A DNA stretch of 50,013 bases, from the sequence record OZ346186.1; one strand, given 5' to 3'. Under the pieces are notes generated by a model. That model made no database searches. It saw only the letters and a list, made by a program, of their open reading frames with translations, and was not told the origin of the DNA. Below, one piece after another: positions 30,246 to 42,097 of the stretch; the first letter of the stretch is position 1, and each line of letters starts with the position of its first letter. A program made the translations under genes and the position numbers. The DNA is from a phage.

Positions 30246-30947
30246 ATGAGCAAAGAAACCGAAGTGACATTTGAACAAATAGAACGCGAAACATTCATTG
30301 GCAATGCTCTCGCTACTGGTGGTCATTACCAGGCTGTTAAACCAAATCAATATTTCAAAGTGACTGGCAACCGATATAACGGCAGCAATACGCCGGACAT
30401 TGTGCGCGATTTGTGGTCTACGCCGTATGAGCTTGTCGCATGGATGGAAAGCGAATACGGTGATTATGACATCGACGCGGCGGCAAGCAAAGAAAATGCT
30501 GTATGTGAAAAATTCTACAGCAAGGAAACAAATTGCTTAAAGCGTTGGTGGGGTAGTAATAAGCATATATGGCTGAATCCACCGTACAGCAATATTACTC
30601 CATTTGTTAAGAAGGCGATTGAGCAAATGGAGCACAACAACCAGATCGACATTCTGTTACCTTGCGACACGTCAACAGGATGGTTTTATGAGGCGCAGCA
30701 GCGCGCAGCGGAAATCATCTGGATCACTGGCGAAGTTTACCAGGAGGACGGAACAGAATATTCCCGCACAGGACGCCTTGCGTTTACCTCGGCTCTTACA
30801 GGTAAGCCAGTGCAGGGAAACAACAAAGGAAGCGTTATTTTCATCATGCGCGAACTTAAAGAAGGTGAGCAGCAGAAAACTCGATACGTTAAAATCAGCG
30901 ACATTTGCCCTTCGGTGGCAGACCGTCGCGCACGGAAACGGAGCTAA
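30246..30947 (+). CDS. dam: DNA N6-adenine methyltransferase (Dam-like)
   Basis: 233 aa with NPPY catalytic motif (LNPPYS). Confidence 0.75.
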   Translation: MSKETEVTFEQIERETFIGNALATGGHYQAVKPNQYFKVTGNRYNGSNTPDIVRDLWSTPYELVAWMESEYGDYDIDAAASKENAVCEKFYSKETNCLKRWWGSNKHIWLNPPYSNITPFVKKAIEQMEHNNQIDILLPCDTSTGWFYEAQQRAAEIIWITGEVYQEDGTEYSRTGRLAFTSALTGKPVQGNNKGSVIFIMRELKEGEQQKTRYVKISDICPSVADRRARKRS

Positions 30948-30951
30948 AACC

Positions 30952-31209
30952 ATGCAAAAAGAAAGAAGCGTTTATTTAAATGAAACTGGCGAATGGTTGT
31001 TATTTCGCGCTATGGTATGCGATTCACTTGATAAAAACCCTAACGTGAAAAAGATGATTGATTGCGATCCGTGGGAATTTTCAAGCGCATTAGATATGAG
31101 CTTTGAGGAGACAAAAAAACTCCCGCTTGAAAAATGGAACGAGAAAATCAGAAATGACATGCAAGAATTTGTCGATTCGTGGAATTTTCAGCACGGAATA
31201 ATCCACTAA
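30952..31209 (+). CDS. hypothetical protein
   Basis: 85 aa from ATG 30952 (SD ggag); track ORF 30604..31209 is the same frame extended over dam. Confidence 0.55.
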   Translation: MQKERSVYLNETGEWLLFRAMVCDSLDKNPNVKKMIDCDPWEFSSALDMSFEETKKLPLEKWNEKIRNDMQEFVDSWNFQHGIIH

Positions 31210-31252
31210 TAGCACTTTTTGTTAAAACGCCCGACCTTGTGTCGGGCATAAT
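31208..31252 (+). promoter_or_regulatory. conserved box + hairpin + CATAAT
   Basis: box 31208-31228; hairpin gcccgac..gtcgggc; -10-like 31247-31252. Confidence 0.5.
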
Positions 31253-31284
31253 TATTTCATCAAAACGAACAAGAGGAAAACAAA

Positions 31285-31464
31285 ATGGTTGTTTACGATC
31301 CACGCGCTTTTAAAATTGCTCAAGAAGTTTCACGCGAATCTGTTGCTGGCGGTTCGGTTAACGGCTATCAGTTTGATTGGTCGGCAGCAATGACCTTGCT
31401 TAAGGTTGCATATGGTCACGCGCCAATTGAAACAGCGGAGGCATATTATAAGCATGAAGGTTGA
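31285..31464 (+). CDS. hypothetical protein
   Basis: 59 aa hand-translated; SD aagagga; downstream of box promoter at 31208. Confidence 0.5.
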   Translation: MVVYDPRAFKIAQEVSRESVAGGSVNGYQFDWSAAMTLLKVAYGHAPIETAEAYYKHEG

Positions 31465-31696
31465 ACAAGGTAGGCAGGCTGTATGGAATCACGCAAAGGA
31501 ATGCGGGATCGCAGAAGACATAGCCAGGATAGCGAAATATTTTGATATTGCTGACATAAGCATTATCAGCGGCGACAAAATGACATTTCTCAATGAGCGA
31601 CCGCGCAAAATGCATCGCGTACCTGCAATACCAACAAAGATTGATTTCAAAGAGGCTATGGCGAAAATTCGCGAGCCGCGCAAATACTACAAATGA
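31454..31696 (+). CDS. hypothetical protein
   Basis: 80 aa from ATG 31454 overlapping previous stop. Confidence 0.5.
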   Translation: MKVEQGRQAVWNHAKECGIAEDIARIAKYFDIADISIISGDKMTFLNERPRKMHRVPAIPTKIDFKEAMAKIREPRKYYK

Positions 31697-31707
31697 GGAT
31701 TATTATC

Positions 31708-31782
31708 ATGTGGCGTTTGTTACTTTTGCCCTTACCTGTTATGATGGCGATCTATATTGTATATGTTGTCATAATGAGATAA
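31708..31782 (+). CDS. 24-aa hydrophobic peptide (MWRLLLLPLPVMMAIYIVYVVIMR)
   Basis: hand-translated; SD gagga 8 nt upstream; its stop lies inside SD of the next gene. Confidence 0.3.
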   Translation: MWRLLLLPLPVMMAIYIVYVVIMR

Positions 31783-31794
31783 GGAGAATTTTTG

Positions 31795-32910
31795 ATGAAG
31801 CAAATCAAAATCACAGATGAACAATTTATCAATGAGCGCAAGCAGGGAAAGACATATAAGCAGATCGCTAATGAGTATGGTATGAACGTTCGCAGCATTG
31901 AGCGACGCGCGGCACGATTAGCAAAGCAAGGTAAAGTTACAACCATCGGATCACCTGGTTTTGGTGTTACTGGAGAATCAAAGCTAATTGATAAAGATGG
32001 CAATGTGGTTATGACATGGATTAAGACAAGTAAGGACCGCGAACAGTTAGAAGCATTAATGCAGGCCGCTATGGATGCATTTAGCGAAGAAGTTCCTCGA
32101 CTTGATCCACAGCCAGAATCACAAAAGGATTATAGCGAGACGTTATCACTGTATCCGATCTTTGACATGCACTTGGGCGCAATGGCGCATAAGCATGAAT
32201 GCGGCGAGAATTGGGATACAGCAACAGCAGAGCGCGTAATGAATAATTTCATTGATTATTCCATCCAGTGCGCTCCTGATAGTGAAAAAGCTGTTTTGCT
32301 GATTGGTGGTGATATGCTTCACAGCGACGGACTGGAAGCGGTAACGCCTGCAAGCGGTCACGTATTAGATCAAGATAGTCGATACGCAAAACTTGTTTAT
32401 GTTGCCATCCGGTCAGTGCGTAGAGCAATCACAAAGCTGTTATCAAAACACAAAAACGTCGAGATTCAGATTATTGAAGGAAACCACGACCAAAGCGGCA
32501 TGATCTGGTTGCGCGCAGCAATGGCGGCAGCATATGAGAATGAGCCACGAGTGCATGTTGATGTGTCTCCGCGAGTAGTTCATCACACACAATATGGCAA
32601 AACGTTCCTGGCATACCATCACGGGCATACTATCCGCAAACCTGAAACGTTGCTTATGATGTGCGCGGCAGACTGGCGAGAAGACTTCGGTAATTCAAAA
32701 ATGATGTATGCTCACGTAGGGCACTGGCATCATCAGACAGTAACTGAAACAAGCCTGGGCATTGTTGAAGTGCATAGCACTATGGCGGCAAAAGATGCAT
32801 ATGCGGCGCGCGGTGGATGGCGTTCTCGTCGCCGTGCGGCTGTTATTGTTTATGATAAAGAATACGGAGAAGTAGGGCGATTTATGCATTATCCAGAAAT
32901 GGCTGGTTGA
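31795..32910 (+). CDS. HTH domain fused to Mre11/SbcD-type metallophosphoesterase
   Basis: N-terminal HTH-like KTYKQIANEYGMNVRSIERRAARL; phosphoesterase motifs DMH, GGDMLH, GNHD, GHWHH. Confidence 0.55.
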   Translation: MKQIKITDEQFINERKQGKTYKQIANEYGMNVRSIERRAARLAKQGKVTTIGSPGFGVTGESKLIDKDGNVVMTWIKTSKDREQLEALMQAAMDAFSEEVPRLDPQPESQKDYSETLSLYPIFDMHLGAMAHKHECGENWDTATAERVMNNFIDYSIQCAPDSEKAVLLIGGDMLHSDGLEAVTPASGHVLDQDSRYAKLVYVAIRSVRRAITKLLSKHKNVEIQIIEGNHDQSGMIWLRAAMAAAYENEPRVHVDVSPRVVHHTQYGKTFLAYHHGHTIRKPETLLMMCAADWREDFGNSKMMYAHVGHWHHQTVTETSLGIVEVHSTMAAKDAYAARGGWRSRRRAAVIVYDKEYGEVGRFMHYPEMAG

Positions 32911-32953
32911 ACTTTTAATCATTAAAATATAAATATAAATCATCAATTTAATT

Positions 32954-32983
32954 GGGCGTGGCATTTTGCTTCGCCCTTTTTTT
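32954..32983 (+). terminator. rho-independent terminator before lysis cassette
   Basis: gggcg..cgccc + T7. Confidence 0.55.
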
Positions 32984-33056
32984 ATTCCTTTTTGTGCGTT
33001 CAATGGTTAGGATACAATCAATTAATTGTTGACTTTTATATACAGGAGATCTAATC

Positions 33057-33272
33057 ATGAAAGATTTTTTAAACGCTGCAACTTCCGGCACTGGCGGCGC
33101 GTCAATCACTGGCGCGGTAACTGGTCAAACAACTATCGCAATAGCCAGCTTAGTTTTGATGGCTGCATTTGGTATGTGGGGCGCTTATCTTCGCTGGCGT
33201 GATAGTAAGGCGCTACGTGACGCGCTTGAATGCGGTGATATTAAGAAAGCTATTGAGATCAGAGGTAAATAA
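33057..33272 (+). CDS. holin (single-TMD, pinholin-like)
   Basis: 71 aa, one hydrophobic segment, charged C-terminus, immediately upstream of endolysin. Confidence 0.6.
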
Positions 33273-33760
33273 TGAGTATAAAACAAAGAGTGACCGCTGC
33301 GGCTTTTGGCGTTGCTCTTGCCCTTACTTCTCCGCTACTGGAGGAAATAGAAGGAGTAAAATATAAGCCGTACAAAGATATTGCTGGAATATGGACGGTT
33401 TGCGCCGGAATAACTGGACATGACGTAATACCAGGTAAAACGTACACACAGAGAGAGTGCGATGCGCTACTGGCAAAGCATATCAAGATCGCAAAGGATG
33501 AAGTTGATAAGCGTGTGAAGGTTGACATTCCTGATACAATGCGCGCGGCGATGTATTCATTCACATACAATGCTGGCACTGGCGCTTTTAGAAATTCAAC
33601 CATGCTTAAGCTGATTAATAACGGTCGTTATATGGAAGCGTGCGATCAGTTATGGCGATGGACAAAATACACCAATCCAAAAACAGGAAAGAAAGAAACG
33701 TCTAAAGGACTGCGCAACCGCCGCGCGGTGGAATTTAAATATTGCATTAAGGATCTGTAA
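33272..33760 (+). CDS. endolysin, T4-lysozyme-type muramidase with SAR-like N-terminus
   Basis: E-x8-D-x5-T catalytic spacing ([16 protein letters not shown]); Gly/Ala-rich weakly hydrophobic N-terminal segment. Confidence 0.75.
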
Positions 33761-40720: not shown

Positions 40721-40899
40721 TCAACCAAGTCAACAAGGTCATTTTTAACAGAAAAACCAATGACTTAACTGAAGCATTTTGTTATCTTTAAACGCGCCAC
40801 ATGACAAAAATTGTTATTAAAACACAAAAATACATTGACACGTATGAAAGGCAAGGCAATAATGCATCCAGTTTAAACGCAACAAAAGGAGTAGACGCC

Positions 40900-41385
40900 A
40901 TGAGCGAAGAAAATATTAGCACCATGTCGCGTAGTGAGTTCTGCGATATGCTTCGCAGCCTGGGTGCGGCAATTGGTAGCGGCGAGCGTAACAATGTATT
41001 CATGCCAGCACTTTTCTTGTGCGCTAACGTGGAGAACGGCGACGCAATTACAGCATCGTACATGCGCCAGGTTGTAAACCGCGTACCAGAAGTGAAGCAA
41101 AAAGGCGTGATCAGCATTAAGCGAAAGGTGACTGATGAGGGTGATGGCTTTGTGTTTACGCTCACAGAAGCCAAAAGCAAGCCACGCGTTCTGACTGGTG
41201 AAGAAATCGACGAGATCGCAGAAAAGCGCGCAGAGAAGGCGGTAAGCAAAATTCTTAATCACCTGGTAAGCGTAATGCCAAATATCACAGACCTGGAAGG
41301 CGACAAACTTGCTGGAGCGTGTGAGGCTATCGGGCGCTACCAGGATATGATTCGTAAACTCGCTGGAGGAAAAGAGGATGAATAA
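40900..41385 (+). CDS. hypothetical protein (first gene of rightward block)
   Basis: 161 aa from ATG 40900 (SD aaaggag); track ORF from 40801. Confidence 0.55.
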   Translation: MSEENISTMSRSEFCDMLRSLGAAIGSGERNNVFMPALFLCANVENGDAITASYMRQVVNRVPEVKQKGVISIKRKVTDEGDGFVFTLTEAKSKPRVLTGEEIDEIAEKRAEKAVSKILNHLVSVMPNITDLEGDKLAGACEAIGRYQDMIRKLAGGKEDE

Positions 41386-41638
41386 GGCATTAATTGGAGT
41401 TTTGATTGCAATTGCTACCCTGACCGGATGCGAAAAGGCATCGGAATCAACGGTTGTCGTAGGCGTGGAGTCAGATTTCAAAGTCGGTCGCCTGTTCACT
41501 GTTGACGGATGCACAGCATACAGATTCTATGATAACGGTCGCGCGATCTATTACACCAATTGCAAAGGCGCAACGGATAGCACGTACAACAGCGGAAAGA
41601 ACGTAATGCACCAGCAAGTCACAACAGATATTAAATAG
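41378..41638 (+). CDS. lipoprotein
   Basis: 86 aa; signal peptide MNKALIGVLIAIATLTGC nearly identical to that of the Cor-like gene; stop TAG embedded in box. Confidence 0.55.
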   Translation: MNKALIGVLIAIATLTGCEKASESTVVVGVESDFKVGRLFTVDGCTAYRFYDNGRAIYYTNCKGATDSTYNSGKNVMHQQVTTDIK

Positions 41639-41678
41639 CACTTTTTGTTAAAACGCCAGGCGCAAAACCTGGCATAAT
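41634..41678 (+). promoter_or_regulatory. conserved box + hairpin + CATAAT
   Basis: box 41634-41654 includes stop TAG; hairpin gccagg..cctggc; -10-like 41673-41678. Confidence 0.5.
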
Positions 41679-41710
41679 AGCCTCATCGAAACGAGATTGA
41701 GGAAAACAAA

Positions 41711-41896
41711 ATGGCACGTCGCATCACCAAAGACCTTAAAGTCCTGAACAAAGAAAACGTAGTTAAAATTCTGGTTATCTGGGGCTACAACGAAGAAACA
41801 GCAAAGCAGAAGGTAGAGGCAGGTTATGACCTGGCTGTAAAAGCAATGCCAAACGACGACGCCAAAGGAATTGCAAACTATGTAGCTTTCTTTTAA
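41711..41896 (+). CDS. hypothetical protein
   Basis: 61 aa; SD gagga; conserved leader. Confidence 0.5.
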   Translation: MARRITKDLKVLNKENVVKILVIWGYNEETAKQKVEAGYDLAVKAMPNDDAKGIANYVAFF

Positions 41897-41911
41897 TTAG
41901 CAGGTGAATAA

Positions 41912-42097
41912 ATGAAAACGAAATTAGTCCATAAATCAGAAATCAAGATCGGCGATACTGTGATTCACAACGGAGAGCTTAGAACGGTTGGCAAAGAGTC
42001 AATAAGCCACGATGAATTTATGGGGATTTTGTTGTTCGGTGACTCTTATCGTCTTGGTTACAAGATGGTTGAGCTTGTGGAAGAAGTGAAATTCTAA
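41912..42097 (+). CDS. hypothetical small protein
   Basis: 61 aa; SD aggtga; pattern SEIKIGDTV...G.LRTV shared with 42345..42527. Confidence 0.5.
   Translation: MKTKLVHKSEIKIGDTVIHNGELRTVGKESISHDEFMGILLFGDSYRLGYKMVELVEEVKF

Follow-up and report, generated by a model that had tools for sequence, protein, structure and literature searches.

A predicted helix-turn-helix metallophosphoesterase and the conserved micropeptide gene beside it in a T1-like phage genome

Background

A 50,013-nucleotide stretch of phage DNA (sequence record OZ346186.1; the whole stretch is hereafter called the window) carries, at positions 31,708 to 32,910, a tiny open reading frame (ORF) and, close behind it, the gene for a 371-residue protein in which a predicted N-terminal helix-turn-helix (HTH) is joined to a metallophosphoesterase (MPE) domain. 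We lean towards the view that this HTH-MPE protein is a stand-alone DNA-targeting nuclease of the phage's replication and takeover module, and that it is accompanied by a membrane micropeptide encoded in the same translationally coupled string. The enzyme gene is already catalogued and widely annotated, and a recent preprint has touched on it; what is new is the uncharacterised architecture and the conserved, overlooked micropeptide.

T1-like phages are among the commonest coliphages, and are known both as laboratory contaminants and as therapy candidates. T1 and TLS degrade the genome of their host, and the 2024 re-annotation of TLS lists the responsible genes, and the way in which the host is shut off, as an open question (PMC11447400). 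The gene described here offers a concrete candidate for that stated question in T1 biology. Host-DNA destruction by a therapeutic phage is also relevant to transduction and to the liberation of resistance plasmids, and the micropeptide provides a small, clean example of a conserved gene missed by standard annotation.

Results and Discussion

An enzyme gene with an invariant metallophosphoesterase site

The enzyme gene and the small ORF lie exactly where the original prediction, made from the letters of the window, had placed them (Table 1). The four phosphoesterase motifs it had pointed out proved to belong to a canonical MPE set of five, namely D124-x-H126 (DMH), G172-D173-x-x-H176 (GGDMLH), G229-N230-H231-D232 (GNHD), H276 (HHGH) and G309-H310-x-H312 (GHWHH). 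In an alignment of 111 relatives sharing 31-57% identity, the metal ligands are invariant (D124, H126, D173, N230, H231, H276 and H312). The GDxxH and GNHD signatures follow what we take to be the motif pattern of Mre11. Ahead of the enzyme ATG an in-frame TTG is also present, at 31792.

The protein matches PHROG 704 end to end (residues 5-370 on profile positions 3-389 of 390; E=1.7e-151), the name of that profile, 'DNA repair exonuclease', being an annotation and not an assayed function. The Pfam Metallophos model (PF00149) stays below its gathering threshold for the enzyme (14.2 bits versus a cut-off of 21.5; E=0.063) and is reached at E<=0.01 by just 27 of the 111 relatives; the family is too divergent for this Pfam model, and motifs and fold still place the enzyme in the superfamily. 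Judged by both, the protein is a member of the calcineurin-like MPE superfamily. Deposited proteins exist that are 100% identical across all 371 residues and differ only by a short C-terminal tail, and related records label the gene 'putative phosphoesterase', 'DNA repair exonuclease' or 'hypothetical protein'. The positional orthologue in phage Bas01, Bas01_0050, is 59% identical over its full length; that of T1 occupies 40822-41955 in record MK213796.

Predicted fold and domain layout

Structure prediction, the check that had been proposed at the outset, returned an MPE fold: the AlphaFold2 (AF2) model, built on the 111-sequence alignment, has a pLDDT of 92.7 and contains the MPE beta-sandwich. 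Its closest folds are PolD-DP1, Mre11 and SbcD. In the Foldseek ranking Mre11 and DP1 come first, with the cyclic-nucleotide phosphodiesterase Rv0805 nearly tied (3.3e-7 versus 8.9e-8), and GpdQ is also among the close structural matches; given the near-tie, we describe the fold as an MPE nearest the nuclease branch, a description that does not settle the substrate. All fold matches of the model in BFVD are uncharacterised phage proteins, and the single enzyme sequence searched against the PDB gave only noise. The MPE core, joined to the preceding hairpin and helix by a short linker, runs nearly to the C-terminus (residue 365 of 371), with no extra C-terminal domain of the Mre11 capping type in the AF2 model. 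Between motifs II and III lies a family-specific insert, HSDGLEAVTPASGHVLDQDSRY, in which T184 is invariant and D178, L191, D192, D194 and R196 are nearly so; H176 is counted in motif II and not in the insert.

The HTH-like segment that had been noticed at the N-terminus was recovered as three AF2 helices (Table 1). In the window enzyme the Pfam match to HTH_28 is sub-threshold (E=0.0026); many relatives match HTH families, among them HTH_1, HTH_8, HTH_50, HTH_28, HTH_23, Sigma70_r4_2 (1.5e-9) and GerE (2.4e-8), and the family profile has weak matches in the PDB to HTHs of the GerE/LuxR type. From these profiles and the model, the N-terminal domain is predicted to be a DNA-binding HTH, and to judge from the relatives the HTH-MPE architecture is a property of the whole family, in which the type of HTH varies. 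For many distant relatives the alignment starts no earlier than near residue 55, so that the beta-hairpin and helix that follow the HTH belong to the conserved core and the HTH is the variable part. The hairpin-helix with G69 and W75, together with the motif II-III insert, are signatures of the family.

Distribution, genomic contexts and the Bas01 orthologue

The family is large, with 4,649 representative clusters (at 50% identity) matching at E<=1e-3 and 1,042 at E<=1e-30, and most members are 370-420 residues long. By tblastn, 2,043 phage records match the enzyme, including T1-like phages, Dhillonvirus, Jerseyvirus, the temperate mEp021 group, and phages of Vibrio, Rhizobium, Roseobacter, Campylobacter and Flavobacterium. 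In mEp021 the homologue lies within the replication module, between a replication protein and Zn-ribbon protein on one side and HNH/DnaB on the other; in a Jedunavirus it follows primase/helicase and polynucleotide kinase and precedes terS, the gene for the small terminase subunit; in Campylobacter phage CP30A it adjoins a DNA ligase; in a Vibrio phage it follows an OB-fold protein; and in Dhillonvirus it stands between the lysis genes and terS. The recurring location of the homologues is the tail end of a DNA-metabolism module. The window, essentially a complete T1-like phage genome, conforms: according to the annotation of a 98%-identical genome and to Pfam scans of the window, the enzyme gene closes a string of small genes that lies 3' of an SNF2-like helicase, a VRR-NUC nuclease and Dam. 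Pfam scans of the window ORFs further identified a RecE-like exonuclease and an Erf recombination protein.

A 2026 pangenome study (PMC13164509), which counted the gene among the persistent ones, found the order exonuclease-holin-endolysin-spanin in 508 of 522 Drexlerviridae. The paper describing mEp021 says nothing on gp11, the homologue of the window enzyme, and the published transposon-essentiality and genome-reduction studies cover no T1-like phage.

Phenotypes are on record for the Bas01 orthologue. Bas1 mutants escaping the DRT7/UG10 reverse-transcriptase defence carry missense or frameshift mutations in Bas01_0050, termed there 'a putative nucleic acid-targeting phosphoesterase', and expression of this gene was toxic in E. 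coli, so that the authors could not test co-expression (bioRxiv 10.64898/2026.02.16.706125). From the viable mutants, the toxicity and the escape we conclude that growth in the laboratory does not require the gene, that its product on its own harms the cell, and that it is one determinant of sensitivity to the defence. In the same study the escape mutants of lambda had lost Gam (bioRxiv 10.64898/2026.02.16.706125), which links the trigger of DRT7 to the biology of DNA ends and RecBCD. The title of Roberts and Drexler (1981), as cited in PMC11447400, speaks of viable T1 mutants defective in host degradation, and such mutants are consistent with a dispensable gene. The enzyme gene would then be accessory in the laboratory and strongly retained in nature.

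Two observations on the locus and on database records may be added. An HNH homing endonuclease lies directly 3' of the phosphoesterase gene in T1, Bas01 and mEp021, and in two IMG/VR loci, L031 (2444-3000) and L032, the micro-ORF is parted from the phosphoesterase gene by an inserted HNH-like gene of roughly 160 codons. The locus has the appearance of a homing-endonuclease hot spot, which is not surprising beside a highly conserved gene. Some 20 records named as Campylobacter phages hardly differ from E. coli T1-like phages (the protein of A16a, for instance, is 95.7% identical), and the protein of 'Streptococcus phage MBBL140' is 79% identical to the window enzyme; these look-alikes are probably T1-like contaminants or cases of mis-assigned hosts in the databases.

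A conserved micro-ORF upstream of the enzyme gene

The tiny ORF had been described as possessing its own Shine-Dalgarno (SD) sequence and a stop codon inside that of the enzyme gene, and both features are present in this tightly juxtaposed pair. The ATG at 31708, which opens a 24-residue form, has GAGG 9 nucleotides (nt) upstream, and the ATG at 31693, which opens a 29-residue form, overlaps the stop of the upstream gene as ATGA. The stop-in-SD layout recurs in T1 and Bas01 as TAAGGA. ORFs as short as 24 codons arise by chance in this AT-rich window, where dozens are listed, and the evidence for a real micro-ORF therefore comes from conservation.

We compared 80 related IMG/VR loci together with T1, pSf-1, JLBYU09 and Bas01. 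A homologue of the micro-ORF is present in all 48 T1-like loci, adjacent to the enzyme gene in 46 and displaced in two. The adjacent copies comprise 23-31 codons and end 2-17 nt before the enzyme ATG; they specify 30 distinct peptides with a grand average of hydropathy of 1.4-2.5 over the 17-25 residues left by our trimming script (the full ORFs encode 23-31). In the two displaced cases, both TLS-like, the micro-ORF has been kept 5' of the inserted HNH-like gene, about 480 nt from the enzyme gene (the L032 peptide reads MRYIYVIIFPPVIAWVIVYFLVMGLS). The peptides diverge strongly, as the versions from T1 (MKLYFAVVLTPLISFSVMYFIIM) and Bas01 (MTSLILVASLPLFSFTILYFIVMN) and the window core (MWRLLLLPLPVMMAIYIVYVVIMR) illustrate; common to them are a basic N-terminus, one or more central prolines, an aromatic residue some four places before the C-terminus, and a generally hydrophobic character. 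In nearly all lineages the start codon of the micro-ORF overlaps the stop of the gene before it or directly adjoins it, although that gene differs between T1-like lineages and the micro-ORF is the constant element.

Among eight gap-free sequences, the in-frame proportion of synonymous differences (pS) was 0.52 and that of nonsynonymous differences (pN) 0.20, giving a pN/pS of 0.38, as compared with 0.70 and 1.80 when the two alternative frames were read. Of 23 columns each, 11 first, 7 second and 18 third codon positions were variable (chi-square 10.8, 2 degrees of freedom, p ~0.005). As the sequences are related, these figures lend support and are not a strict test.

The micro-ORF is rarely annotated: it is absent from the annotations of T1 and Bas01, exact look-ups found one deposited copy (Shigella phage ESh4), and JLBYU09 annotates its own variant. 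It has no PHROG match. No micro-ORF was found beside enzyme homologues outside the T1-like phages, nor did a consistent small transmembrane (TM) neighbour emerge in Dhillonvirus, Jerseyvirus, Jedunavirus or the Rhizobium, Roseobacter and Campylobacter phages. From its conservation pattern, we conclude that the micro-ORF is a real gene for a small, putatively membrane-inserted peptide, linked to the enzyme gene and not merely a leader.

Two mechanistic ideas were considered and rejected. In the window the micro-ORF and the enzyme ORF share a reading frame, separated by TAA and four sense codons (GGA GAA TTT TTG), so that read-through could yield a membrane-anchored fusion; the corresponding gaps in relatives are 2, 8, 10, 11, 12, 13 and 17 nt, mostly not multiples of three, and the shared frame is probably a coincidence. 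Gating of translation by RNA structure was likewise discarded: the minimum-free-energy fold over the micro-ORF and SD contains a hairpin, but with z=-0.38 it is not significant.

Some related loci deserve mention in their own right. In the IMG/VR locus L044 (2896-2972) the micro-ORF appears frameshifted, its N-terminal half (MKMLFTVTFLLPVAAG...) and its conserved C-terminal half (...IMYAVIMS) lying in different frames, which may reflect a sequencing error or a natural knockout. In Jerseyvirus (L006, 2597-2926; MKTLIALGLLTVSLQSFA...) and Jedunavirus (L093, 3702-3992; MRKLLFCLMLCGTANA...) a protein of about 100 residues is encoded just 5' of the homologue; these proteins have signal-peptide-like or lipoprotein-like N-termini and are not homologous to the T1-like micropeptide, yet they are envelope-directed neighbours.

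Proposed function and alternatives

In the account we favour, the 371-residue protein would be a binuclear-metal phosphodiesterase, catalytically competent and built like Mre11, SbcD and PolD-DP1, brought to DNA by its fused HTH and acting without a Rad50-type ATPase. Its likeliest activity would be to cut DNA, with the host chromosome or else DNA ends and intermediates as the target. Such cleavage would account for the toxicity of the orthologue on its own and for the escape of Bas1 from DRT7 once the orthologue is lost. Translation would run as a coupled string from the upstream gene through the micropeptide to the enzyme, the micropeptide being a single-pass membrane peptide of 23-31 residues. 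Of the three functional options raised originally, the DNA-binding nuclease fits best, because the HTH fusion extends through the family, nucleases have the most similar folds, the contexts in unrelated phages are those of DNA metabolism, and the orthologue is toxic. DNA as the substrate, and host-DNA degradation as the role, appear plausible on these grounds, and the enzyme would be a leading candidate for the host-genome degradation function of T1-like phages. Two MPE proteins of other phages offer precedents for the destruction of host DNA, the mycobacteriophage A10ZJ24 protein Gp48 (PMC12287305) and, according to its annotation, T5 A1.

Several points weigh against this account. The nuclease function is a prediction for every member of the family, and the family profile reaches SbcD and Mre11 chains among PDB sequences only at E=0.7-2.3, which is not significant. 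The genome holds other nucleases that could degrade host DNA, the VRR-NUC protein and the RecE-like exonuclease, and the family also occurs in temperate phages (mEp021), in which wholesale destruction of host DNA is less expected. The toxicity and DRT7 data come from one preprint on an orthologue of 59% identity (bioRxiv 10.64898/2026.02.16.706125), and insertion of the micropeptide into a membrane is suggested by composition alone.

The competing account that survives best, although we think it rather unlikely, overlaps with the favoured one, since it assumes the same activity on a different target: the enzyme would process DNA ends for the phage's own replication and recombination, as a Rad50-independent analogue of Mre11 working with the RecE-like exonuclease, Erf and a single-stranded-DNA-binding protein, and would not degrade host DNA. 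The nearest folds (Mre11, SbcD and DP1), the presence of RecE-like and Erf recombination proteins, the position of the gene in the replication module of temperate mEp021 and beside ligase in CP30A, and a weak match to the ligase-associated nuclease PdeM all speak for it. Yet the enzyme has neither a capping domain nor a Rad50 partner, the gene is dispensable in the laboratory, and toxicity of the protein alone is more easily explained by attack on the chromosome.

A bolder extension of the host-degradation idea is speculative, and we would be surprised to see all of it hold: the micropeptide and the HTH-phosphoesterase may form a two-part takeover device peculiar to T1-like phages, in which the peptide tethers, times or restrains a toxic DNA-bound nuclease that degrades the host chromosome. 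Such a device would be functionally convergent with the T5 set of A2, a small membrane protein and A1, and what DRT7 senses would be its effect on DNA or RecBCD homeostasis, as with lambda Gam.

For the micro-ORF, the original prediction had suggested translational coupling or a leader peptide. That it is a functionless leader or coupling device, or a chance ORF, now seems quite unlikely. Its extreme shortness, the commonness of such ORFs in the window, and the overlap of its stop with the enzyme SD and of its start with the upstream stop are what such a reading would predict; but it is kept in 48 of 48 T1-like loci despite a pS of about 0.5-0.7, hydrophobicity, central prolines and the C-terminal aromatic residue are preserved, second codon positions are the least variable (7 of 23, against 18 of 23 third positions), and the RNA carries no significant structure (z=-0.38). 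The leader idea also finds no support in the amino-acid-level selection (pN/pS 0.38) or in the persistence of the peptide in TLS-like loci, where the inserted HNH-like gene (~480 nt) uncouples it from the enzyme gene.

The signal-degrading option, in which the enzyme would be an anti-defence phosphodiesterase destroying the nucleotide second messengers of CBASS, Pycsar, Thoeris or type III CRISPR and not DNA, is improbable in our estimation. It fits the fold, since MPEs include cyclic-nucleotide phosphodiesterases and Rv0805 and GpdQ are close structural matches, and catalytic motifs alone do not reveal a substrate, but it is otherwise unsupported: a DNA-binding HTH is fused in many family members, which argues against such a role; the contexts are those of DNA replication and repair and not anti-defence islands; and the orthologue is toxic alone while its loss helps the phage against DRT7, so that there it is a liability and not a counter-defence. 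We also know of no signal-degrading family, Acb1 and Apyc1 included, that has the HTH-MPE architecture.

Least probable of all is the option of a pure transcription regulator, for instance one that switches on the late or lysis genes behind it, with the phosphoesterase domain as a sensor or relic. In its favour stand the HTH, which is of the sigma-4/LuxR/Fis type, and the location of the gene, which directly precedes the lysis cassette in 508 of 522 Drexlerviridae and terS in Dhillonvirus and Jedunavirus. Against it, none of the catalytic residues varies across thousands of clusters, and phages whose orthologue is frameshifted are viable, where a late-gene activator should be essential. In addition, a terminator-like hairpin lies between the gene and the lysis cassette, and in mEp021, CP30A and Vibrio phages the gene is not directly upstream of lysis or terminase genes.

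Genome setting and neighbouring elements

The window comes from a T1-like phage of Hanrivervirus (Drexlerviridae, Tempevirinae); its region 31285-33300 shares 97-98% DNA identity with phages of this genus such as pSf-1, JLBYU09 and JakobBernoulli. Features of the locus are collected in Table 1.

Table 1. Coordinates of the features discussed, given as window positions
Feature	Position	Strand	Basis and remarks
Micro-ORF, predicted hydrophobic single-helix peptide	31693..31782	+	29-residue form MRIIIMWRLLLLPLPVMMAIYIVYVVIMR; conserved 24-residue core from ATG 31708
SD sequence AAGGAG of the enzyme gene	31781..31786	+	8 nt ahead of ATG 31795; overlaps micro-ORF stop TAA 31780-31782
HTH-MPE gene, 371 residues	31795..32910	+	ATG 31795, stop 32908-32910; PHROG 704; equals pSf-1 gp10, JLBYU09_76, Bas01_0050
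Predicted N-terminal three-helix HTH, residues 8-44	31816..31926	+	AF2 helices 8-16, 21-27, 32-44; pLDDT 92-95
Predicted beta-hairpin and helix linker, residues 57-97	31963..32085	+	G69 and W75 near-invariant; AF2 and alignment
MPE catalytic domain, residues 114-365, motifs I-V	32134..32889	+	Alignment, AF2 and fold comparison
Terminator-like hairpin GCCCGAC/GTCGGGC with A/T-rich tail	31229..31256	+	Pattern scan, consensus match only; 5' of the small-gene string
80-residue gene, pSf-1 gp9 equivalent	31454..31696	+	Stop TGA overlaps first micro-ORF ATG (ATGA)
Intrinsic-terminator-like hairpin GGGCG.GGCA/UGCU.CGCCC, then U7	32954..32984	+	44 nt past the enzyme stop codon
Promoter-like site	33029-33058		Ahead of the holin gene; consensus match only

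The upstream hairpin is the probable 5' boundary of the local unit; terminator-like sites in its region show no excess over shuffled sequence (12 versus 7.7 +/- 3.1). The 80-residue gene next to the micro-ORF matched no Pfam or NCBIfam family. The downstream hairpin, which sits between the enzyme gene and the holin/endolysin/spanin lysis cassette, folds at -14.6 kcal/mol (z=-3.43; 0 of 200 shuffles equally stable) and was missed by the pattern scanner because of an internal U-U mismatch. Given this terminator-like hairpin and the promoter-like site ahead of the holin gene, co-transcription is probably not the cause of the conserved exonuclease-holin adjacency.

Further upstream, a 201-codon ORF with a TTG start (30604-31209) overlaps the 3' part of the Dam methylase gene (30246-30947) in another frame; for its distal part, JLBYU09 annotates a gene overlapping Dam by 83 nt and pSf-1 a shorter, non-overlapping one.

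Comparison with known systems

The label 'Mre11/SbcD-type' given in the original prediction stands as far as fold and style of motifs are concerned, and fails for the capping domain, the Rad50 partner and the sequence profile. Compared with T. maritima Mre11 (3qg5, 4o43) and S. aureus SbcD (7dog), the window enzyme begins with an HTH and hairpin where Mre11 has its customary ends, carries the additional motif II-III insert, and lacks the capping domain; the structural similarity is significant, whereas the sequence-profile match is not (E about 1). The absence of a Rad50/SbcC partner, noted at the outset, was borne out: none is present in the annotation of the 98%-identical genome, and Pfam scans covering the small upstream gene and the nine largest non-structural ORFs in the window gave no SMC or AAA_23 match. 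With DP1, the small subunit of PolD and a 3'-5' proofreading exonuclease (5ihe), identity is 14% and the N-terminal domains differ; the enzyme has no DP2 partner, and no polymerase is annotated in the 98%-identical genome. We therefore propose that the protein may work like a stand-alone Mre11/DP1-type nuclease, not that it is an Mre11.

Two further MPEs are more distant. PdeM, the ligase-associated single-stranded-DNA endonuclease represented by the Pseudomonas putida MPE (6nvo; TIGR04123), is matched with 19.9 bits against a family cut-off of 150, lacks an HTH and is encoded together with Lhr and ligase in a bacterial repair operon. Gp48 of A10ZJ24, a cluster A MPE, is a toxic protein with phosphodiesterase and nuclease activity that fragments the genomic DNA of the host; the phage can do without it on one host but needs it on another (PMC12287305). 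Its motif I begins at residue 10, leaving no room for an N-terminal HTH, and it is likened to the window enzyme at the level of the superfamily.

The closest parallel in organisation is the pre-early locus of T5 (AY543070, 1706-4134; our locus L092), which encodes A2 (DNA-binding), T5.005 (65 residues, two TM segments) and A1 (556 residues, MPE motifs), the last annotated as needed for host-DNA degradation, shut-off and second-step transfer. As in the window, a DNA-binding protein, a small membrane protein and an MPE-type enzyme would thus occur together. A1 matches only PHROG 1745, as against 704 for the window enzyme, with no cross-match; it has a large extra N-terminal region, and the small membrane proteins of the two phages resemble each other in neither length nor topology. 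An hhalign comparison of the MPE domains gave a probability of 61% (E=8e-5, 220 columns), with motifs III-V in register, including NHDxxxSxWL, and motifs I-II out of register; the full-length profile-profile comparison (probability 28%) covered the HTH only, and A2 showed no relationship to the family profile. To our knowledge, T1-like phages have no two-step DNA transfer, unlike T5. We therefore regard the T5 module as a functional analogy and not as a case of membership. Some A1 homologues (44-49% identity, ~87% coverage) carry an N-terminal HTH_23, HTH_38, HTH_7 or CENP-B N domain, resembling the fusion in the window, and together with the separate A2 of T5 they suggest that A2 and A1 may be a split version of the HTH-MPE fusion.

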